Assembly: GCA_000146465.1 (NCBI GenBank)
Contig: CP001951.1
DNA: 64,000 nucleotides
Direction: 5' to 3' (one strand)
Part shown: one piece after another, positions 32,202 to 58,374 of the stretch
How positions within the stretch are numbered: the first letter of the stretch is position 1
Layout: each line of letters begins with the position of its first letter
The notes under the pieces: generated by a model
Database searches by the model: none
Told to the model about the DNA's origin: nothing
Seen by the model: only the letters and a program-made list of their open reading frames with translations
Position numbers and translations under genes: made by a program

Positions 32202-32770
32202 AGAGGGTAAACACAAATTTTTATTAAATGGTCTCTAGATCTCTCTAATCATGGCGGGTAAGTCTCTTTTTCCTCTGTTCCAACTCCTTCAGATATTCAT
32301 CCACAGCCCTTATTTCATCGATTATTGCTTTTCTTCTTTTCTCAGCTCTTCTCAAAAGAATATTGACAATCTCTAATATTCTCTTAATCTTCTTGTTATT
32401 GTCATACATCTCGCAGGGATTCTTCAAAACGGTTTCTTCTCCTAAGATCTCACTTCATAGTAGGAGGGATTGTTAGCGCTCAACCAGGGGCTGGGAAATA
32501 GATAATCATTCAAGACTTCAAACCACTCCGGCCCGTCACTTTCCAAAACTTCATGCATCTAAACTAAATAATAAATTAATTATTCCATAGCAATGAATCG
32601 GCCTGCTTCATCAATTCATAGTATTTGACAGATCGAGCGATGAGTATTCAGATTTATCCATAAACATGATATGATAAATTCATCTTATGATATATGGGAG
32701 ATTCCTTTTATGGAAATGACATTTATGGAGAGGATAGGGCTTCTAATTGTGTCTATAGTTGCTTTAAGGT

Positions 32771-33262
32771 ATGGGATATAATTTGGCAATGACCCCAGCT
32801 TTGTTCATGTCAAGGTTGCCCAATCTTGCCTCCTCTCGTATGAATGAAATAAGAAAAGTCTACATAGAAGCCAACAATAGAATTGTTGAGGAAATAGATG
32901 CAGTAACAGAAAAGTTCTCAAAAGAAGTTGAGACCATTCCTAACATCTCGGCCAGCGTAAGGATATATCTTGAAGAAAAAATCAGATCTATACGTGAGTT
33001 TGTTGTCGATAGTATTGGATTTTCAATAGGCGAGTTTAGAGCCTTATACAATCCCGATGGAAATGAAAGCATAAAAACGAGAAGATTTCCAAAGTTCATA
33101 ACCGAGGCACTAGAAAGGAGCTTTGAGATTGACCAATATCCGTCCGAAGCCGAAAAGTCAAGACTTGCAAAAATATGTAAACTTTCGACAAAGCAAATAA
33201 ACAACTGGTTTACGAACAAAAGAAATAGAAGCAAAAGCCATGATGGGGGTAGGCAGTACTAG
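32771..33262 (+). CDS. homeobox protein, typical (non-TALE) 60-aa homeodomain
   Basis: RRFPKFITEALERSFEIDQYPSEAEKSRLAKICKLSTKQINNWFTNKRNR. Helix1-loop spacing matches a classical homeodomain with no 3-aa insertion. ATG confirmed. Confidence 0.8.
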   Translation: MGYNLAMTPALFMSRLPNLASSRMNEIRKVYIEANNRIVEEIDAVTEKFSKEVETIPNISASVRIYLEEKIRSIREFVVDSIGFSIGEFRALYNPDGNESIKTRRFPKFITEALERSFEIDQYPSEAEKSRLAKICKLSTKQINNWFTNKRNRSKSHDGGRQY

Positions 33263-33798
33263 GCTGTGAATGGGAGGCGCATATGATTTTAATATAATCC
33301 ATGTATGTATTTCTTTGAAGTAAAGTAAGAGACTAAATTAGTATAACTCTTCTTAAAGCCCCAATGGCAAGTAATATAAGTTATTCTTGATACGAAGATC
33401 AATCTCACCTCGATTCTCTATTTTAGGAAAGGTGAAATTTTCGTGGTAGGAAGATCTTTGACGACCTAAATTTCGTAGGAGAAAGATACGACAGAATCGA
33501 CCGAGTGTGAATGAGATAACATAGTATTTTAATTGTTAATTTAAACAATTAGTTTTCGATGTAATATACAAAACCACCGATGTGTAGAGGAAATTGGTTC
33601 CAAGACAGAACACTAGAAAAGGATGTTACAAGACAACATGAGACTGTAGACTTCTATGCGCGCTTGGATAGGCCAGATTCTATTTATTTCTGTCATATTG
33701 ACACAATTGAAATATTAAATTATAAAACCTCTATCAAACAAGATTAATTAAGCTATCGCGAGACAATTAGATAAAACAGAGTGAATGGAGCGGTAGCC

Positions 33799-34368
33799 AT
33801 GAACATGATAATGGATATATTGAATCAAGTTATGTATGCTGAAGAATGCTATTTCTCCAACAGAGTTAGCAGAGAGAAATTAATGGAAGACATAAGACGT
33901 CTTCGGAGTGAATACGAGATTGGAATAATGAGAGACTCTGGAAGAGAAGGAATAAAATTCAAAATGGCATTGCTATTTATTCTTAGAAGAGTGAGACACA
34001 AGATTATACTTGAAGACAGACTCATGGAGATGATTGATTCCGAGGTTGCTTTCGTTAGAGGATGTGTAAGCAGTATCATCTCTGAGCCCTTCGGAGTCAA
34101 GCCTGTAGAAACCATGAGGCCTACACAACAAGAAGCAGAGACCAGGTGTGCCAAACCAAGGACAAGGGCCAACTTCCCTATGGACACTTCACAGCTTCTG
34201 AGATCTTGGCTTAAAGAGAATATGGATAACCCATATCCATCGGATGCCGAAAAGGCATATCTTTGCCAGAAGACTGGCCTTGGTCCTGCACAGATTAATA
34301 ATTGGTTTATAAATGCTAGGAGAAGAATCTTACCTTTCATGAAAGGAAAGCGTGCGAGTTTCAAATAA
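33799..34368 (+). CDS. homeobox protein, TALE class
   Basis: TRANFPMDTSQLLRSWLKENMDNPYPSDAEKAYLCQKTGLGPAQINNWFINARRR has the PYP three-residue insertion and the WFINARRR helix 3. Track start 33781 is GTG; first ATG is 33799. Confidence 0.85.
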   Translation: MNMIMDILNQVMYAEECYFSNRVSREKLMEDIRRLRSEYEIGIMRDSGREGIKFKMALLFILRRVRHKIILEDRLMEMIDSEVAFVRGCVSSIISEPFGVKPVETMRPTQQEAETRCAKPRTRANFPMDTSQLLRSWLKENMDNPYPSDAEKAYLCQKTGLGPAQINNWFINARRRILPFMKGKRASFK

Positions 34369-34689
34369 ATTTATATGGGAGTTTATTGGTTAATTATCTT
34401 ATCCATCGGTAGCCACACATTTAGAACTCCAAATAAAGGCTCGAAAGATTCTGAACAACTGTATTAGAGTCTGGTTCGGATGTGTCTAGAAGCCAACTAC
34501 TGCCCACCCCGAGATAACTAGTAAAAATGGAAAATCCATATGAAATAAAATTATGGGTAGCTATTAATTAAAATAAGTTTAAATTTCATAGATATAAAAC
34601 GACCTTATTGCTTTTAATGGATTATTGTGAGCATTTATTTCTTCTATAAGATCATCATGCAAAAAGTTTGAAAAAGAAGGCTGCTCATG

Positions 34690-42696: not shown

Positions 42697-43122
42697 TTAT
42701 TTATTCTTTTTCTCTGCCTTCTTCATTGCTCTCTTGATAGTACCAAAGATCTTATAGCGCTTCTTCCTTTCGTCCTTTCTTACCCTTCTAGGTGTTATTT
42801 GAAGCTCCTTTCCAGTGATCTTTGCTACAACATGCTTCTTCTCAACTGAAGAAAGAACTTCAGCATTTGAATAAATCTTTGCTCTGAGTGTGGTTCTGTG
42901 TGTTCCATACCTATTCTTAAGATTTCCAACTACAATGTTCTTCTTGCTTGTTTGATAGAGCTCAGATATCTTGTCTGTTATTTCCTCTCTGCTGGGAATA
43001 GGCATTCCAGGATGGTATGCAACCACATCCAATTCTTTCCTGGAAAGCAGTTTGTTCTCCTTAAGGCCAGAAATCTCAAGTTCCAAACTCTATAAGTTAG
43101 CTTCAAATACCTCACTTACCAT
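42697..43122 (-). CDS. 40S ribosomal protein eS24, two exons: join(43122..43120, 43089..42697)
   Basis: The track ORF (43086) starts on TTG. On the minus strand an ATG at 43122 is followed directly by GTAAGT...GCTAAC..TATAG, a 30-nt intron at 43119..43090. The spliced product begins MSLELEISGLKENKLLSRKELDVVAYHPG... and is eS24 throughout; unspliced, the ORF stops after 10 codons. Confidence 0.8.
43090..43119 (-). other. spliceosomal micro-intron (30 nt) of the eS24 gene
   Basis: GTAAGT donor immediately after the ATG, CTAAC branch-like motif, and TATAG acceptor. Confidence 0.7.
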
Positions 43123-43210
43123 TTCGTGAGGGATAAAATTTTCGGAAATATCTGTCTTTCAGGCCTCTCGACCTTCGAAAATATTTTCCTTAACAGAAAG
43201 GCCCTTTGAA

Positions 43211-43426
43211 ATGGTAAGTGGAACTTCGGAGTCCTGGAAATAACTTTAGGCAACTATTACAATCAACAAAGCTGGAAAGGTTAGGAATCAAACACCAAAG
43301 GATCCTGTTGTCGAAAAGGAAAGGAAGAAGTGCGGGCGCTGCAGACAACGCTTGAAGTTTGAGAAGAGAAACGAGATGGGATATTTTGATGTGATGGGAA
43401 AGATGAAGCTGAATCCTCAGTCATGA
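43211..43426 (+). CDS. 40S ribosomal protein eS30, two exons: join(43211..43213, 43250..43426)
   Basis: Absent from the ORF track. ATG at 43211 is followed by GTAAGT...AATAACTTTAG (36-nt intron, 43214..43249). The spliced 59-aa product is [59 protein letters not shown], with the eS30 AGKVRxQTPK and basic tail. Unspliced, the ORF stops after 10 codons. Confidence 0.8.
43214..43249 (+). other. spliceosomal micro-intron (36 nt) of the eS30 gene
   Basis: GTAAGT donor immediately after the ATG, ATAAC branch-like motif, TTTAG acceptor; exon 2 stays in frame through a TGA at 43424-43426. Confidence 0.7.
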
Positions 43427-43594
43427 AAGATAAAATAAAATCTTATTAGCCTCTATGGCCGAATTTTCCGTTATAAAACATATCTAATGGATTACCCTTG
43501 CTATTTTCGAAGCTTTCTTGGTTTTTACCAAGGATGTCAAAGAGTAGCAGATAGAAAGCTGCAGGCACCAAGGGTGCTAGGCACACATTTTAAT

Positions 43595-49294: not shown

Positions 49295-51634
49295 ATGAAA
49301 TGCCAATACTGCGAAGTGGAGGAACTGCTCATAGAGTGTGTGGGGTGTGGAAAGCATTTCTGTAACTCGCGTAGTGCTTCATCGATATCTCATATAGTAT
49401 TTCATCTTGTAAAGGCAAAGCATAAGTCAATCCGAATTGGTGGAGACATCAAGTGCAGAAAGTGCGGAGAAGATAATTTGTTCAAACTCCTTGAGAACAA
49501 TGGGAAGATTTTCTGCAATGGATGCAGCTCGGGTAGAATGGTGGTTGAAGAGAGATGTCTCACTATAATCAAAAGCCCTGAAGTACAAGGAAAAAGATTG
49601 ACGAAGCAACAGATGGCAGAGATGGAAGAGAAGAGTATGGCGTCTCTTCCCTATGTTAAATCAAGGTTTGAAGCCAAGGAGTATGTTGAAGTGTTTTCTT
49701 CGCTAATTGAAGCTGAGTGCAAGAAGGAAAGAGAGATAAAGGAATCGATGAGGCAAGAGAATGTATTTGTTCGATGGGAGAAACTAAAGTACTGCTATTT
49801 TTACTTTCAGAATGGAGATAGTGAGCTGAAGATCAACATTGGAGATGAAATTAGATTGACACATAAGAGTGGATTTGTCCTACACGGATTTGTCAGTGGG
49901 GAGACTTTTAGCGAGGAGCTGAAAGTGGAGATAGAAACACCTGGAGACTATCCAAGAAGTGGATATACTGTGGAGTATCTCTGGAGAGGAATATGCTACG
50001 AGAGAATGGAATGGGCCTTAAGAAAGTTATACAATACATATAAGAAGGAGACAGACAAAATCAAAAGAAATAAGAATAAGAATGACGAAAGAAAGCCATG
50101 CGACAAAGGAATAGATGTCTGTAGGGATTTGAGTGTACAAAGACCAACGAATAGAGGCGATATCGGGGCTATGGGGGATGAAGGAAAGATGCAGAAAGGA
50201 AGGAAAAGTCTTAATGAAGGCCCATCGATATTTGAATATATCTTAAAAGGATATAAGGAAGGGATTGGGAATTCGGGGCATATTTTTCCGGTGCCGGATC
50301 TTCCCAGACTTAATGCTTCTCAAGAAATAGCTGTAAGAGCAGCTCTTGGAAGGAAGGTGACTCTGATACAGGGGCCTCCGGGGACAGGAAAGACCTTGGT
50401 CTCGTCTGCTATTGTTTATAACCTAGTAAAACACTACGGGGGAAAGGTTCTTGTTGTTGCTCCCAGCAACACTGCTGTAGATCAACTTACCTTAAAGATA
50501 CATAAGACGGGACTAAGAGTTCTGCGAGTGATGAGTAGGAGAAGGGAATGCGGGCAATCGGATGTGAACTTTCTTTCTCTTCATGAAAACTTGAAGGAGC
50601 TGCAAGAGGGAAGAAAGAAAAAAGATGAGTGCTATGGAGACCATAATAGATACAACAGCATTTACAACGATGAAACCAACGAGTCATTGAAAAAACACCT
50701 TTTGAATCAAGCAGAAGTTATCACTTGCACGTGTGTAACATCTGGCCAAAAGATGTTCAATAAGTTCCGATTCCACTATGTATTGATTGACGAAGCAGTC
50801 CAATCGACAGAGCCCTTGAGCCTTATCCCATTAGTGTATGGGTGTAAAAAGCTTGTGCTTGTTGGAGACCACAAGCAGCTGGGGCCCACTATTCTTTGCA
50901 AGAAGGTAGCACAAGCGGGATTCAAGCAAAGCTTGTTTGAAAGACTGATTTCAATTGGTGTGGTTCCCTATGTACTATCGGTTCAGTACAGGATGGATGC
51001 GGATCTTTGCGAATGGCCTTCTGAGATGTTTTACAACGGAGAACTTCTTACTGGAGGAAAGAACTTCTGCAGATTTGATCTTGGGATTCCAACGAACTTC
51101 TTCTATGTATGTTATGGAAGAGAAGAAGTCAGCCCAAGCGGAACCTCGTTTGTTAATCAGGCCGAAGCCTTGCATTGTGAAAGCATAATAAGACATCTGT
51201 TCAAGTGTGGTGTTACAGAGAATCAAATAGGAGTGATAACACCATATGAGGGACAAAGATCTTATATTCTAAATAGAATATTTGGAGCCGAGCCTGGAAA
51301 TCTTGAGATAAGCAATGTCGATGGTTTTCAGGGAAGAGAAAAGGACTTTATAATTGTTAGTCTTGTCCGAAGTAACCTATACCAGGGAATAGGGTTTGTT
51401 GGTGACAAGAGAAGAATGAATGTGATGCTGACAAGAGCAAAGCATGGGTTGGTAATAATAGGAAATCCAATGACTTTGATGAGACACGATATGTGGAGTA
51501 ATCTCTTGTCCTTCTATGATAGGAAAGGCCTTGTGATGGAGGGCCCTTTACACAATCTCAGACGAGTTGTTATAAAGCCCCCCAAGCTCTTCGACTTTAG
51601 AGAGATAAGCAGATCTCTTATGAATCAAATATAA
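49295..51634 (+). CDS. RNA helicase UPF1 (nonsense-mediated decay)
   Basis: N-terminal CH zinc-knuckle domain (CQYCE...CVGCGKHFC...H..KCRKCG...CNGC) and SF1 helicase motifs [48 protein letters not shown]. Confidence 0.85.
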   Translation: MKCQYCEVEELLIECVGCGKHFCNSRSASSISHIVFHLVKAKHKSIRIGGDIKCRKCGEDNLFKLLENNGKIFCNGCSSGRMVVEERCLTIIKSPEVQGKRLTKQQMAEMEEKSMASLPYVKSRFEAKEYVEVFSSLIEAECKKEREIKESMRQENVFVRWEKLKYCYFYFQNGDSELKINIGDEIRLTHKSGFVLHGFVSGETFSEELKVEIETPGDYPRSGYTVEYLWRGICYERMEWALRKLYNTYKKETDKIKRNKNKNDERKPCDKGIDVCRDLSVQRPTNRGDIGAMGDEGKMQKGRKSLNEGPSIFEYILKGYKEGIGNSGHIFPVPDLPRLNASQEIAVRAALGRKVTLIQGPPGTGKTLVSSAIVYNLVKHYGGKVLVVAPSNTAVDQLTLKIHKTGLRVLRVMSRRRECGQSDVNFLSLHENLKELQEGRKKKDECYGDHNRYNSIYNDETNESLKKHLLNQAEVITCTCVTSGQKMFNKFRFHYVLIDEAVQSTEPLSLIPLVYGCKKLVLVGDHKQLGPTILCKKVAQAGFKQSLFERLISIGVVPYVLSVQYRMDADLCEWPSEMFYNGELLTGGKNFCRFDLGIPTNFFYVCYGREEVSPSGTSFVNQAEALHCESIIRHLFKCGVTENQIGVITPYEGQRSYILNRIFGAEPGNLEISNVDGFQGREKDFIIVSLVRSNLYQGIGFVGDKRRMNVMLTRAKHGLVIIGNPMTLMRHDMWSNLLSFYDRKGLVMEGPLHNLRRVVIKPPKLFDFREISRSLMNQI

Positions 51635-51736
51635 AGGGATTTCCAATCAGAGGAGGGAAAGAACTACTGTTTGGAATTACTAAGAAATAAAAATTCTTGA
51701 ATTATTTTTATGTTCTTCTTTATGCTTTAAGAGGTT

Positions 51737-53671
51737 TTACAAGGTCTCTTTCTTAGGTATTTTGCTTTCACTGCCTACATCAATCTCTTCCTTTATGTCC
51801 AAAGCAGTCCTTCTGACTATAAACACAGGATCCTTTGTAAAGCTGTCAATGTTTAAGATCTCTCCAAAAAACTTAGGCCATTCTCTATACGAATGGAGTA
51901 GTGCTCTTCGATACCTCCAGTCATTCTCATAGTTCGTGCACAGAGTCTTGGATATTTTCAATAGGAATTCGTTATCTGGGAAGTGGTCTAGAACCCTGAT
52001 CTGAGAAAGAAAAGCCTTCCTGTAGCGTTTGCATACCTCAAGAACGATTCTTTCCAATTCTTGCTCTATACAAAACTCGGGGGAATTAAGCCGCTTGGCG
52101 TTCTTAAACGTCTTTTCGTCGCCCAGCATAGACATCTTCTCTTCATCCTTCGAGAGTTTGTTATTCTCCTCTGTGCTGTTAAATAAATTAAGAAGGATTT
52201 TGACTATCTCTTCCAGATCTTCGGCAATGTGTGCATAGACAGCATCCGAGACTCTTTCGATCTTGCTTTCGCATATCTCCTCAAGGATAAGGAACATTTT
52301 CTTGTGGGGAAAAGACCGGAGAAACTTGATGTACAGCTTGCTTATGTTGGAATAGTCGTTGACAGACGAAATAGATATCGATCCAAAAGTGTCTGCACAC
52401 CATTCGATGTAAAGCCCGAAAGTTGTGTCTGTTACAGGTAGATTATCAGACTTCAGCATCTCTCTTTTTGAATTCCTCATTCTCCCAATCATAGCCTCCA
52501 AGACTCCAGAATCTATTGCTTTTAACTTGAATATGTGGGAGGCACATACAGGTTCGTACTCTGTGCCTATATACTTCTCAAACAAATCTAGAAGTTCCTT
52601 GTCAAAAGACAAGCTAAGATATAAGGCAACATTCTCAAGGAAAAACCTCGGAGAAACAGACTCAATGTCCAGCAGATACTTCTTAGCCTCCTTCAGACAT
52701 CGGCTTTCATCCGAGGGCTTATAGGAAGCACACAGACAAGTCTTGTCTTCCGATTCTTCAACTCTACATCTACAAACTCCATCATGACATTCCTCTTCAT
52801 ATGGTCTTTGGTGAGGTCGGCACTCAAGAGTGTCCCCTTCCAACTTGTTTTTAGCTTCCTCCCGATCTTTACTGTTATTTGATGGCGAAGTAGTAGATTC
52901 AAAAAATGGCTTGTCTTGGCTAAAACTTAGTTCCTCAGGGAGTCCCTCCATTCCATCTTCTCTTCTGCCTCCCCCCGCACTATCAATCGAATAGAAATCC
53001 GTTTTCTTTTCGCATTCTACTCCTTTATCGTCCCCAAGCTCCCCTACCGAGGATATTTTCATGTTTTTGATCCACTCTTCCATTTCCAAACTGCTCATTT
53101 CCCTGGCGTCCTTGCATCGCCCACACTTATACTTCAAGCTTCTTTCCCTCATAAGCCTGACCTTCAAGAGATACAGCTCCACAAGAAAATCCTTTTTCTT
53201 CTCAAACATTTCAAACAGCTCGTCAAACTCCGCCCTGCTTGTTCTGGTAAATAGGAAGGCTACAATATCAACCACCTGTTTTGTGCATATTCTGGCAAAC
53301 GGAAGAATAAGCTTGTAAAGGTAGTCTATGTATCCTGTAGAGACTTTATTTTCCCCACTGCTGATTGAAAGACCGCATTTACTGGCAACAAAACTTATTT
53401 CTTCATCTTCTTTTTGTTTTTCAAAATGGTCTTGTAAAGCATTTCCAACCATCTCCAACACAATCAGACTTGTGTTAAAATCCAATAGCTTGGTCCCCAT
53501 CATAATCTTGACCATCTTCTCAAAATCTACTGCCGAGTGGCTATACACCTGCTGAATATTTCTGTATGCCCACACAACATTCTCCGGGTCGTTCATATTC
53601 AAGCTGTCGATCCGGAAAGAAAAGTCCTGGATGTCTGTACAGCCAGCTCCCTTGATCTTGCTGTCCCCCAT
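51737..53671 (-). CDS. hypothetical protein with Cys-rich segments
   Basis: About 645 aa, no family recognised. Cys clusters CGRCKDARE and CHDGVCRCRVEESEDKTCLCASYKPSDESRC. Track start 53683 is TTG; first ATG is 53671. Confidence 0.5.
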   Translation of the reverse strand: MGDSKIKGAGCTDIQDFSFRIDSLNMNDPENVVWAYRNIQQVYSHSAVDFEKMVKIMMGTKLLDFNTSLIVLEMVGNALQDHFEKQKEDEEISFVASKCGLSISSGENKVSTGYIDYLYKLILPFARICTKQVVDIVAFLFTRTSRAEFDELFEMFEKKKDFLVELYLLKVRLMRERSLKYKCGRCKDAREMSSLEMEEWIKNMKISSVGELGDDKGVECEKKTDFYSIDSAGGGRREDGMEGLPEELSFSQDKPFFESTTSPSNNSKDREEAKNKLEGDTLECRPHQRPYEEECHDGVCRCRVEESEDKTCLCASYKPSDESRCLKEAKKYLLDIESVSPRFFLENVALYLSLSFDKELLDLFEKYIGTEYEPVCASHIFKLKAIDSGVLEAMIGRMRNSKREMLKSDNLPVTDTTFGLYIEWCADTFGSISISSVNDYSNISKLYIKFLRSFPHKKMFLILEEICESKIERVSDAVYAHIAEDLEEIVKILLNLFNSTEENNKLSKDEEKMSMLGDEKTFKNAKRLNSPEFCIEQELERIVLEVCKRYRKAFLSQIRVLDHFPDNEFLLKISKTLCTNYENDWRYRRALLHSYREWPKFFGEILNIDSFTKDPVFIVRRTALDIKEEIDVGSESKIPKKETL

Positions 53672-53975
53672 CAATGGGGTCAAAAATCAACATTTATTTC
53701 GAGATCTGCCGCTCACCAGATTTAAAATTATGTATATCTTTATACCTTTTCATTACCATCATGGTCTTAAGATACTCCAATTAATACTCCATTAATCTAC
53801 TGTATGATAAATTCTATTGATTTTGGATATGTCATAAGGAACTTTTCATCACATGATTTTACACTCAGACTACAAAGGATATATAATAGACTCTAGTAGT
53901 ATCAGATTAATTACGAATATTTCCAAAACAAGAAAAAGAACACGTCTCTAGAACATATTCTTTGTAGTTTAAATG

Positions 53976-53983
53976 TATAAATA
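53976..53983 (+). promoter_or_regulatory. TATA-like element (TATAAATA) about 26 bp upstream of the SWP1-like ATG
   Basis: Seen directly; lies in a 326-bp AT-rich spacer that is unusually long for this window. Confidence 0.25.
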
Positions 53984-54008
53984 GAATGCAATAGGAAGGA
54001 AATTAAAG

Positions 54009-55175
54009 ATGATAAAGCTCTCACTTCTCCTAAGTCTAGCGAGCTTCACTGCAGTTCTTGCAAACCAAAGGCCTCGCTGCCAAAGATGCCCAGTGAGCAG
54101 CAGTAAGTACTTCCAACAAAATAATCTTCTTGGAAGCAGGTTCCAAAACGAGGTACAGAGACTTTGCGCCCGCCGTGTGCGAGAAGAAAGTTCTTCTGAA
54201 TCATCCTCTTCCTCTAGCTCTGAAGACTGCTCCCGAAGAAGGAGAAGACCCCACAGAGAATGGGAGGACAGCTGTTCATCATCATATTCTTCTTGCAGTA
54301 GCACAGATAGCTGCTCTTCAAGCGCCCCCTGCCCACCTCCAGTGGCTCAAAGGTGTGATATCGAACTCAAGACTCCTATAATCCTGATGGGAGAAAGGAT
54401 CTACGAATTCCTCAAGAACTACGAGGACCAGTACAAGAAGGCTGTTCTTCTTTTCTTGACCAATATCCTTTCGCAGATCTCAGGATTCAACCCAGTCTTC
54501 CCTGGTGGAGACTACGATGCTCTGATTGAACAACTCAAGACACTTGGAGTCACTGTCCCAGCAAACACTGCTGCCGAGCTTGCCGCCATAGATGCTGCTG
54601 AGTCGTCAGCCCTCACAAGGGCCATTCAGGCCAATGCACAGAAGGTAATTAGCGATCTACTTACCAGGGTCAGTGCCATGTGCTACTTGGACATCATGAG
54701 CCTTGTCAACAGTGGTCTTCTAGCCAGCCAAGTCTCAAGTGTTTTCAACAACATCCAGCCAATAATCACCATTGCCGGAAATGATTTGTTTGCCAAACAG
54801 ATGGCAGTGTTCCAGAAGATACCAGGAACTCTGCCCTCCGCTGCCATCACAGCTATCACCAATGCTCTCCAAGGCAACAGGACCAACTTTGTCACATTCT
54901 TTACAACTCAGACAAGCAATCTGCAAACAAGCGTCCAGAACTCTCTTACAACCCTGATTTCTGAGCTTGAGAAGCTGGCCACCGACACGGAGACTGCCTT
55001 CACAGCTTTTGCAAATGCAGAAATTTCAGCACTTATAAGCAGAATCTTCCCAACATCCACCACATCTTCGGGATCCGGAGACTCTACAGGGTCTGGAAGC
55101 ACGGGAGATGCAGGAGATGCGGGAGATACAGGAGAGGACGGCGGAGATGATGAGGGTACAGAAGGAACTGGTTAG
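54009..55175 (+). CDS. secreted Cys-rich spore wall protein, SWP1-like
   Basis: Signal peptide [18 protein letters not shown]; exactly 10 Cys, all in the N-terminal two-thirds; Ser-rich acidic stretch; C-terminal Gly/Ser/Thr/Asp repeats ([30 protein letters not shown]). The gene is visibly GC-richer than its neighbours. Length and Cys count fit published descriptions of Encephalitozoon SWP1. Confidence 0.6.
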
Positions 55176-55370
55176 AACTACCTATCCTAATGTCTGAGTC
55201 CGGAATCGGCTGTTATAAAGCATAGCAAAATATCAGCCAGGACTCAAATGGCCTCGTGGTTAGAATATGCCCATATACTATCTTCGCTGATATCAAGGCT
55301 TTTCACAAGGCTGTAAATAAAACTGATTTCCAAACTAGTGTATTTTAACGATGTGTGGTTGGGAAGACCC

Positions 55371-56723
55371 ATGAAGTTTGAGGATTTGAAAATCGACCAA
55401 AGAATTGAGAAAGGATTAAGAGAAAGTGGATTTGTAGATATGAAAGAAATTCAGCAGAAGGTTATTCCAATGGCACTGGAAGGACATGACATAATTGGAT
55501 CTTCGCAGACCGGAACGGGAAAAACGCTTGCTTTTCTTGTTCCCATTTTGCAGAAGTTAACCGATCTCCAATGGAGCGGAGGAGATGGTCTTGGATGCGT
55601 GATAATCACTCCAACACGTGAACTGGCCTTACAGATATTCGACGTCCTCAGTAAAGTTGGAAAATACACTGTATTGAGCACAGGATTGATTATGGGGGGA
55701 CTTGAGACAGAAAACGAATCTTTAAGATTGAGCAATATGAACATTCTAGTATGCACACCGGGGAGGTTTCTCCAGCATCTGCAGGAGAATCCTTATCTAA
55801 ATACCGGGGGGATCCAGATACTGGTTCTTGATGAGGCCGACAAGATGATAGAGATGGGGTTCAAAGAGACTTTGGAAGATATACTTGGGTACATTCCTTC
55901 TAAGAAGCAGACCTTGCTGTTTTCTGCAACACCCAAAGCCTCAACGGCTAGAATCCTAAGGTTAGAAGATCCCAAGATCGTTTCTATGTATAAGGAAGAG
56001 GGATTTCCATCTCAACTACACCAATATTTCTATATGATGAGGATGGAAGACAAGGTCAATTATCTACATACGTTTATTGGAAGTAATCCTGGAGTTAAAG
56101 GAATTGTATTCTTTAGTACTTGCAAAGAAGTTAAGTTTCATTATCTTTTGTTTGAAAAGCTTAAGCTTCGCAATAGAATCTTTTGTCTCAGCGGTGGTAT
56201 GTCGCAAAAGCAAAGAATAGATACGTTCAAAAAGTTTGTGAGAGAGAAAAACGGAATTCTGTTCTGCACGGATCTGGGCTCCAGAGGACTGGATTTTCCT
56301 AAAGTTGATGTGGTTATACAATATGATTGCCCATGCAATATTGAAACGTACGTCCATCGTGTGGGAAGAACAGCCCGAAATAATGAGGGTGGAGAGTCCT
56401 ATGTGTATCTTGTTTATGGAGAGGAAAAACTTCTTGGGGATATTCAGAAGAAAGGATGGATTAAAAAACAAGAAACTGAAAGTAAAGATGAAGAAGACAG
56501 AGGTAGCTCTGAAGAAATTGTAGAGGGGCCAAATATCCGTATCAAGTCCATTGATAGGATGATTAAAGGCCTTATAAAGTCAAACAAGGAACTTAATGAG
56601 TATTGTAGGAAGTATCTTACTACATACGAGAAGTTCCTTACATTCAGTAGTAAAAGATATTCCGAGAGCATAATAAGAAAGATCTCAATCCTATACGAAT
56701 ATTTTGGGATTTCAAAAGATTAG
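55371..56723 (+). CDS. DEAD-box ATP-dependent RNA helicase (Dbp4/DDX10-like)
   Basis: Q motif region; GSSQTGTGKT, PTRELALQ, ILVCTPGRFLQHL, VLDEADKM, SAT, HRVGRTAR. Track start 55338 is GTG; first ATG is 55371. Confidence 0.85.
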   Translation: MKFEDLKIDQRIEKGLRESGFVDMKEIQQKVIPMALEGHDIIGSSQTGTGKTLAFLVPILQKLTDLQWSGGDGLGCVIITPTRELALQIFDVLSKVGKYTVLSTGLIMGGLETENESLRLSNMNILVCTPGRFLQHLQENPYLNTGGIQILVLDEADKMIEMGFKETLEDILGYIPSKKQTLLFSATPKASTARILRLEDPKIVSMYKEEGFPSQLHQYFYMMRMEDKVNYLHTFIGSNPGVKGIVFFSTCKEVKFHYLLFEKLKLRNRIFCLSGGMSQKQRIDTFKKFVREKNGILFCTDLGSRGLDFPKVDVVIQYDCPCNIETYVHRVGRTARNNEGGESYVYLVYGEEKLLGDIQKKGWIKKQETESKDEEDRGSSEEIVEGPNIRIKSIDRMIKGLIKSNKELNEYCRKYLTTYEKFLTFSSKRYSESIIRKISILYEYFGISKD

Positions 56724-56777
56724 AGACCTGTTTATTTATTAAACAAACATCAGCATTTTGTATTTTTAGCAGTAGAG

Positions 56778-58016
56778 CTAATACTCGTTTAATCTCAAGA
56801 GCTGATTATATTTGCTAACTCTTTCTCCCCGACAGGGTGCACCTGACTTTATGTATTCTGCCCCAACACCCACCGAGAGATCGCTTATAAAATGATCCTC
56901 TGTTTCTCCGCTCCTATGAGAAACCATGATTTTCATTCCATGTCTTCGAGCCACCTTTATTGCATTTATTGTTTCGCTAACTGTTCCTATCTGGTTAGGT
57001 TTTACTAAGAGTGTATTGCACATTTTTCTTATTCCTGCATTCTCGACAAGTTGCGGATTGGTGACAGTCAAGTCATCCCCAACAATATTGATTTTGTTTC
57101 CAACCTCGGAGTTTATCCATGTCCATCCATCATAATCCTCTTCAGAGAATGGATCCTCGAGACTATATATCTGAGGATATTCCCTAAGAATTCTCATGTA
57201 TTTTTCTCCTAGATCTCTTGTTGTATAAACTTCACCATCGAGATGGTATTTCCCGTCTCTTAGGAATTCGTTGGCTGCAAAATCAATGGCAATTTTCATT
57301 TCTGTTCTTTTGCATCTTCTGGATGCCTCTAACACCAGCTCCAATCCTTCTTCTAGCTTCTCGATTGGCGGTGCAAACCCCCCTTCATCTCCCACCGAGG
57401 TATATAAGGCACCGTACCTTTCAGATATTGTTTTCTTTAGAGATTCGTAAAACACGCATCCGGACTCTATATTTTTCTCTAAGTCATCGTATTGATATAC
57501 AACCATTATTTCCTGGACATCCATTTTATTTCCAGAATGAATCCCTCCATTTAAAACATTGAAGTGAGGAATGGGAATCTTTCTTTTGAACATTCCTATG
57601 TCCGAAAGGAATTCGTCAACTCGTCTATTTGAATATGCTGCACCCATTTTGCAGAATGCAGTGGAAAGTGCGATTATTCCATTTCCTCCAATTCTCGACT
57701 TGTCTTTTGTCCCATCCAGCTTCAATAAGCAATCGTCTATCCCTTGCAGATCATCAACAGGACACTCCAGCTCAAATATACTTTTTGTTGCAACCTCATT
57801 AATATTGTTTATTACAGTCTTAACTCCTCTTCCATTATAGGACTTCCCTCCGTCAGAAACCACCACGGCTTCTTTGGAGCCTCGAGAAGCACCTGACGGA
57901 CAAGAAGACCTATAAACACCTTTTGATGTTATCAAATCAACCTCAATTGTTGGATGCCCTCGGCTTGTTAGTATCATTCTTGGCTTGATTTCTTCTAAAG
58001 CATCTTTGACTTTCAT
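56778..58016 (-). CDS. enolase
   Basis: C-terminus SHRSGETEDHFISDLSVGVGAEYIKSGAPCRGERVSKYNQLLRL; N-terminal SRGHPTIEVDL. Track start 58067 is TTG; first ATG is 58016. Confidence 0.9.
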   Translation of the reverse strand: MKVKDALEEIKPRMILTSRGHPTIEVDLITSKGVYRSSCPSGASRGSKEAVVVSDGGKSYNGRGVKTVINNINEVATKSIFELECPVDDLQGIDDCLLKLDGTKDKSRIGGNGIIALSTAFCKMGAAYSNRRVDEFLSDIGMFKRKIPIPHFNVLNGGIHSGNKMDVQEIMVVYQYDDLEKNIESGCVFYESLKKTISERYGALYTSVGDEGGFAPPIEKLEEGLELVLEASRRCKRTEMKIAIDFAANEFLRDGKYHLDGEVYTTRDLGEKYMRILREYPQIYSLEDPFSEEDYDGWTWINSEVGNKINIVGDDLTVTNPQLVENAGIRKMCNTLLVKPNQIGTVSETINAIKVARRHGMKIMVSHRSGETEDHFISDLSVGVGAEYIKSGAPCRGERVSKYNQLLRLNEY

Positions 58017-58083
58017 CTTGGTTTTGTTTTTAGATCTTGGATTGAGTCTATAAATGGTATTATCCAATTCCCTTTGACAGGAA

Positions 58084-58374
58084 ATGAAGAAAGACTTTTC
58101 AAAACACTTGAAGTATCTTTATATTACGGCACTCAATATGATTGGAATTCCATCATTACATAGAAGAAAAACCAAGAAAATGAAAATGATATCCAACAAA
58201 TACCAGGTAAGACTGTCCCGAGAAATAAAGAGGACATTATGTTCTACTTGTCTCTCGATTCTTGTTCCAGGATTCAATTGCACATCAAGAATAGTGAGGA
58301 AAGAGAACGGTCTATGTCTTAAAACTGTATGTGGATGTGGAAGTGAGAAAATCTTTGTGGCCCAAGGAAGATAA
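58084..58374 (+). CDS. RNase P protein subunit Rpr2/Rpp21
   Basis: KRTLCSTCLSILVPGFNCTSR...C.C.C zinc ribbon, collinear with the Rpp21 family; 96 aa. Confidence 0.7.
   Translation: MKKDFSKHLKYLYITALNMIGIPSLHRRKTKKMKMISNKYQVRLSREIKRTLCSTCLSILVPGFNCTSRIVRKENGLCLKTVCGCGSEKIFVAQGR

Follow-up and report, generated by a model that had tools for sequence, protein, structure and literature searches.

The spore wall protein 1 gene (swp1) of Encephalitozoon intestinalis and its conserved upstream spacer

The open reading frame at 54009..55175 (+) was identified as swp1, the spore wall protein 1 gene of Encephalitozoon intestinalis, a microsporidian that infects humans; together with the protein and promoter mechanism proposed below, this reading is given a probability of about 97%. 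The window that was analysed is a stretch of DNA of 64,000 nucleotides. Gene and protein are already known: swp1 was cloned and its product localised in 2001, it is annotated in the genome, and nothing new is added here on the SWP1 protein. The sole fresh point is the spacer upstream of the gene (53672..54008), which shows the same degree of interspecies conservation as coding sequence.

The frame runs from ATG to TAG over 1167 nt, encodes 388 aa and is the single long ORF at this position. In an exact comparison, its product proved identical to ADM12488.1, which GenBank lists for strain ATCC 50506 of E. intestinalis under the name spore wall protein 1. The product shares 387 of 388 residues with the cDNA-derived SWP1 (Q95WA3/AAL27283.1), the single change being A256T. 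A search of approx. 5.8 billion proteins gave seven matches, all of them Encephalitozoon SWP1 proteins or a relative. The best match was UniProt SWP1_ENCIN, and the SWP1 proteins of E. cuniculi and E. hellem were found with 61-67% identity and E-values down to 1e-142. Over 51008-58175, the window matches a contig from a second E. intestinalis assembly with 99.92% identity. The gene order at the locus is UPF1-type helicase, 644-aa gene (-), SWP1 (+), DEAD helicase (+), enolase (-), Rpr2 and dynamin. All seven genes are kept in this order in E. cuniculi, E. hellem, a fourth species (SRR23946965) and the second E. intestinalis assembly, and the locus is syntenic with the neighbourhood of ECU10_1660 on E. 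cuniculi chromosome X. Because of the protein identity and the conserved gene order, the gene can be addressed as SWP1 itself and not just as SWP1-like, which was the wording of the first-pass annotation. No result spoke against this assignment.

The computed properties of the product are 41.50 kDa, a pI of 4.89 and one NRT N-glycosylation sequon. Table 1 of PMC5697631 lists EiSWP1 (GenBank AF355750) with 1167 nt, 388 aa, 41.5 kDa, an 18-aa signal peptide, one N-glycosylation site and a pI of 4.78. According to Table 1 of PMC7040029 and to PMC5697631, both of which cite Hayman et al. 2001, EiSWP1 is located in the external wall (exospore). A polar tube protein had rightly been rejected before, as the composition of the product (Pro 3.9%, Gly 5.9%, Lys 2.8%) rules out the Pro/Gly-rich PTP1 as well as the Lys-rich PTP2.

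The signal peptide proposed earlier was recovered by a heuristic at residues 1-18 (54009..54062, +). Residues 4-18 form a hydrophobic core with a mean Kyte-Doolittle value of 2.14, V at -3 and A at -1 give a V-x-A before the cut, and NQ follows it. The length agrees with the published 18 aa (PMC5697631 Table 1), and the region is kept in the SWP1 orthologues. This peptide would direct SWP1 into the secretory pathway. The following basic, Cys/Ser-rich N-region comprises residues 19-116 (54063..54356, +) with nine Cys, 28% Ser and a pI of 9.0; an Arg cluster, RRRRR, occupies residues 76-80, and the region is predicted to be disordered (pLDDT <50). Disulfide bonds are probable in this region, and glycosylation or phosphorylation is possible. 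Ten Cys had been counted correctly in the first-pass annotation, but they are not confined to the N-terminal part: nine are found within residues 24-116 (24, 27, 53, 74, 89, 96, 102, 108 and 116) and the tenth at 225. C225, which belongs to the central domain, is kept by every orthologue. Across seven sequences, five Cys are invariant, namely C27, C53, C74, C116 and C225.

An Arg/Lys cluster within the Cys/Ser-rich N-region occurs family-wide and corresponds to 54234-54260 (residues 76-84) in SWP1. In E. intestinalis SWP1, this cluster fits the heparin-binding consensus XBBBXXBX, and ARRVRE at 54-59 fits XBBXBX. R77 and R78 are the only residues of the Arg cluster that are invariant among the Encephalitozoon orthologues. 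The published tables (PMC5697631, PMC7040029) give no heparin-binding motif for EiSWP1.

The conserved central all-alpha domain, residues 117-346 (54357..55046, +), contains most of the invariant columns, is predicted to be helical and has 14 representative homologues. In the AlphaFold2 prediction, residues 116-346 form an all-helical bundle of mostly high confidence, with mean pLDDT values of 72-96 per 10-residue block over 121-340, and residues 1-115 and 349-388 remain below 50. The input alignment consisted of seven sequences, and two of the five models were poor (mean pLDDT 38.5 and 31.4). This conserved bundle of 230 residues is probably a self-assembling scaffold of the outer spore coat. 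The C-terminal tail, residues 347-388 (55047..55172, +), is acidic as described before. It consists to 90% of Gly, Ser, Thr, Asp and Glu and has a net charge of -10; part of it is encoded by a 9/18-bp tandem repeat (55102-55137). From species to species, the tail differs in length and sequence. Strongly acidic and predicted to be disordered, it would be exposed and would evolve fast.

Pfam assigned no family above threshold to SWP1 and gave only weak matches to Baculo_PEP_C, NPHP3_N and ApoLp-III. Membership in the exchangeable apolipoproteins (apoA-IV, apoLp-III) or kinship with the C-terminus of the baculovirus polyhedron envelope protein was rejected, as every match stayed below the family threshold (16.4 bits compared to a cut-off of 38 bits). 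The sequence identity to apoA-IV is 6%, the rmsd of the top matches was mostly high with values of up to 18.5 Å, and de novo designed bundles scored equally well. The likeness to these proteins is a resemblance in fold class only. A HMMER search with residues 110-350 against 1.84 billion cluster representatives yielded 14 relatives with 26-71% identity. Among them are a hypothetical protein from Ordospora pajunii, with 40% identity, and two paralogues that one genome carries on a single 52.9-kb Logan contig. The full-length distant relatives have a signal peptide, a Cys/Ser-rich region with an Arg/Lys cluster and, after it, the helical domain, but end in a Pro-rich tail where that of SWP1 is Gly/Ser/Asp-rich. 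On the strength of these comparisons, the predicted central helical domain defines a small family that reaches beyond Encephalitozoon and is not covered by any Pfam model. The tail is the fast-evolving module and differs completely between the Encephalitozoon species as well.

The coding sequence had been described as GC-richer than its neighbours, with abundant GCC, CTG and GCT codons, and this had been taken as a sign of high expression. Among the 49 ATG ORFs of the window that do not overlap and have at least 100 aa, swp1 has indeed the highest GC content (0.491 vs 0.402 ± 0.022 in the other 48, z = 4). However, its GC3, the measure proposed by the first-pass annotation as a check, is 0.487-0.488 and therewith no outlier (rank 5 of 49, z = 1.4), while GC2 amounts to 0.496 vs about 0.33 in the other ORFs. 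SWP1 is rich in Ser (14.2% vs 7.9%), Ala (9.3% vs 3.8%) and Thr (8.5% vs 4.1%) and poor in Lys (2.8% vs 8.1%). When recoded with the pooled synonymous codon usage of the other 48 ORFs, swp1 already ranked first of 49 with an expected GC of 0.458. Since 0.491 was observed, the amino-acid composition accounts for 0.056 of the GC excess of 0.089 (about 63%). The GC-richness is thus mostly a by-product of the Ser/Ala/Thr-rich, Lys-poor composition, to which C-ending codons add a smaller part.

It is doubtful that the GC-richness stems from selection for preferred, GC-rich codons in a structural gene with very high expression, although the codon usage itself is biased. The C3 of swp1 is the highest of the 49 ORFs (0.32 vs 0.19 ± 0.03, z = 4) and its G3 of 0.168 the lowest; TTC, TAC, ATC, GTC, GCC and AAG are favoured and GGG, CCG, TCG and TTA avoided. 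The observed minus expected GC3 is +0.084 (rank 2 of 49), and C3 exceeds G3 in all four SWP1 orthologues. The departure of swp1 at synonymous sites does not recur consistently among these orthologues. As to the codons named before, GCC is enriched (0.42 vs 0.24 of the Ala codons) and GCT slightly so (0.28 vs 0.22), but CTG is not (0.17 vs 0.15 of the Leu codons, among which CTT is the main one). Against such selection stand, besides the unremarkable GC3 and the share predicted from composition alone, the orthologues, in which GC2 is always 0.47-0.53 and GC3 does not exceed that of the neighbours (E. cuniculi, E. hellem), and enolase, a usually abundant protein whose gene is without such a bias (C3 0.16). 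High expression would account for a minor share of the GC-richness at most, and by the GC3 criterion of the first-pass annotation this explanation fails. As the GC-richness is mostly an amino-acid effect, the result cautions against reading raw GC as codon adaptation.

The divergent intergenic spacer at 53672..54008 lies between the 644-aa neighbour (-) and swp1 (+) and is the presumed SWP1 promoter region. With 337 bp, counted from the ATG of the neighbour (53671), it is long compared to the window median of 70.5 bp, as had been noticed before; the length of 326 bp given then was counted from a TTG-extended ORF. The spacer is AT-rich (GC 0.28) and measures 335-355 bp in four species. In the four-species alignment, 47% of its columns are invariant and the mean pairwise identity is 66%. 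The flanking coding sequences reached very similar values with 46% and 66% for swp1 and 47% and 68% for the 644-aa gene. Invariant columns and pairwise identity were lower in convergent spacers (13-19% and 41-46%) and in the tandem spacer downstream of swp1 (35% and 58%).

This conservation is blocky and concentrated in two blocks, B1 and B2, in TATAAATA and in AAATTAAAG next to the ATG. Block B1, CCATTAATCTACTGTATGATAAATTCTATTGATTTT (53789..53824, +), is nearly invariant in the four species and contains the motifs ATTAAT and TGATAA. Block B2, CAGATTAATTACGAATATTTCCAAAACAAGAAAAAGAACA (53903..53942, +), is also nearly invariant and contains ATTAAT; the other species have in it an inverted repeat that resembles TTTCC(N7)GGAAA. 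Neither B1 nor the long part of B2 (23-mer, 53903-53925) has a second copy within the window at up to 3 mismatches, whereas the short A-rich part of B2, AAGRAAAAGAACA (53930-53942), recurs there in degenerate form.

TATA boxes in general lie about 25-35 nt upstream of the transcription start. The TATA-box-like element TATAAATA (53976..53983, +) had been recognised before; it is invariant in the four species and matches the consensus TATAWAW, but ends 25 nt before the ATG and not 26 bp. Its placement is unusual, as TATAWA occurs within 60 nt of the ATG in only four of the 49 ORFs; the octamer as such is not over-represented in the window (4 found, 3.1 expected). The ATG is immediately preceded by GAAATTAAAG (53999..54008, +), an A-rich signal that resembles AAATT(T). 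Both AAATTAAAGATG before the ATG and the junction of AAATTAAAG with the ATG are invariant in the four-species alignment. There is no CCC or GGG triplet within 15 nt of the swp1 ATG, whereas 27 of the 49 ORFs have CCC at this distance. For E. cuniculi, a CCC signal and 5' leaders of <7 nt have been described, as well as AAATTT-like or A-rich signals upstream of genes for abundant proteins (PMC2803860). With a leader of <7 nt as in E. cuniculi, TATAAATA would be at the canonical distance from the predicted start site. Transcription of swp1 would probably proceed from a core promoter of the TATA type, about 30 nt before a leader of very short length, and its start signal would be unlike the CCC-type of most neighbouring genes. 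SWP1 reportedly appears during sporogony, and the conserved upstream blocks may provide the gene with stage specificity.

As two divergent genes share the spacer and palindromic motifs such as ATTAAT could act both ways, the conserved sequence might instead serve the 644-aa gene. This is very unlikely, as the 644-aa gene is equipped with the compact kind of signal that is usual here (a run of A/T, then GACCCC 5 nt before its ATG) and that suffices for most of the neighbours with spacers of 40-120 bp, and as the best-conserved blocks, TATAAATA and AAATTAAAG occupy those two thirds of the spacer that are nearer to swp1. Less credible still is a small gene or non-coding RNA, missed by the annotation, in place of regulatory DNA: the conservation does equal that of coding sequence, small CDSs have been overlooked in these genomes (PMC4589312) and a short ORF, MIN(S/A)IDF..., the sole one common to the four spacers, starts inside B1, but its similarity is lost after 7-8 codons and it ends after 18-30 codons at differing points, indel lengths between the blocks are not divisible by three, no codon position varies within the blocks, and Rfam gave no match at E<=1 on 53400-55500. 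The hidden ORF was therefore rejected. Given the unique B1 and B2 long part, the lack of an Rfam family and the diverging shared ORF, regulatory DNA is the best reading of the spacer.

The palindrome ATTAAT with its TAAT core is a homeodomain-type site. Six intergenic copies are present in the window; three are located in the SWP1 upstream spacer (53780, 53791 and 53906) and three in the three spacers of a homeobox gene pair (32575, 33743 and 34563). The SWP1 spacer thereby holds 3 copies vs 0.67 expected (shuffle P = 0.028), two of which are invariant in the four species; the copy at 53780 is kept in three of four. The 10-mer AGATTAATTA is common to 33741-33750 and 53904-53913. The pair consists of a typical homeodomain gene (32771-33262, +; PF00046, E = 2.8e-13) and an adjacent one of the TALE/KN class (33799-34368, +; PF05920, E = 3.7e-21), lies 20 kb from the SWP1 spacer and has unusually long spacers of 569 bp (32202-32770), 536 bp (33263-33798) and 321 bp (34369-34689). 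The longest spacer of the window (43006-43594, 589 bp) contains neither an ORF of at least 50 aa nor ATTAAT. The pair seems to correspond to the ECU10_1470/1480 cluster of E. cuniculi, which was once proposed as a mating-type locus (PMC2866331). It is conceivable that the SWP1 spacer is a sporogony-specific module, consisting of the TATA element and the 36- and 40-bp ATTAAT blocks, and that a homeodomain factor activates spore-coat genes as well as itself. Such a link between the SWP1 promoter and the homeobox pair is unlikely. If true, one of the few homeodomain factors of Encephalitozoon would switch on spore-coat genes and regulate itself in a genome that is among the smallest of eukaryotes.

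On the other side of the gene, 195 bp (55176-55370) separate the SWP1 stop from the DEAD-box helicase gene. Conserved blocks are found near 55186-55205, with CCTAATG..GAGTCC just after the stop, and near 55305-55335. In the whole interval from the stop to the helicase gene there is a single canonical polyadenylation hexamer, AATAAA at 55316..55321 (+), which sits in the conserved block CTGTAAATAAAACTGATTTC; CACWAGGCTGTAAATAAAACTGATTTC holds this only copy of the spacer. The spacer ends in GACCC before the ATG of the helicase gene. The downstream blocks may be 3'-end signals of SWP1, the helicase promoter or both, and we infer that the AATAAA belongs to SWP1 rather than to the DEAD-helicase promoter. 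A tRNA scan of a tRNA-like stretch near 55250 found nothing. Concerning the neighbours, the 644-aa gene (51737-53671, -) is kept in four species with 68% mean DNA identity and is without a Pfam domain. What looks like a 404-bp spacer between the enolase and dynamin genes is taken up by an ORF of 96 aa (58084-58374, +), below the gene cut-off of 100 aa, which corresponds to the gene identified as Rpr2 (PF04032) at the orthologous loci.

To our knowledge, stage-specific transcription in microsporidia is poorly understood. The SWP1 promoter combines conservation at the level of coding sequence with separate footprint blocks and a TATA element, while its neighbours have compact signals of the CCC type, and it would be suited as a test case. 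The conserved promoter with its ATTAAT motifs and the possible homeobox link is the one lead worth keeping, and it is testable.

As to the other named spore wall protein of the species, SWP2, its N-terminal domain is reportedly close to that of SWP1. An identity with SWP2 was rejected, as the ORF described here has 388 aa and SWP2 1002 aa. No SWP2-like paralogue was found within the 64-kb window by tblastn with SWP1, and no 1002-aa E. intestinalis relative was among the seven matches of the protein search. PMC7040029 lists SWP2 (AF355749) as a second protein of the E. intestinalis exospore. The SWP1 entries of E. intestinalis (Q95WA3/AAL27283.1 with AF355750, and ADM12488.1) represent the same gene, with the strain difference A256T as the only departure from the cDNA entry. 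SWP1 of E. cuniculi (ECU10_1660, Q9XZV1) and SWP1a/SWP1b of E. hellem are syntenic orthologues with 61-67% identity, which have the signal peptide, the five invariant Cys, the helical domain and the promoter blocks in common with it. They differ in their tails: E. cuniculi SWP1 has longer Gly/Ser repeats and varies between 387 and 450 aa among strains, E. hellem SWP1 carries a long Lys/Glu/Thr-rich repeat extension (506-533 aa), and the tail of E. intestinalis is the shortest of the three. The fourth, Encephalitozoon-like species (Logan SRR23946965, 63-kb contig, locus GC 0.39) shares the gene order and has an orthologue of 411 aa with 62% identity, which ends in a Gly/Ser/Asn-rich sequence of its own.
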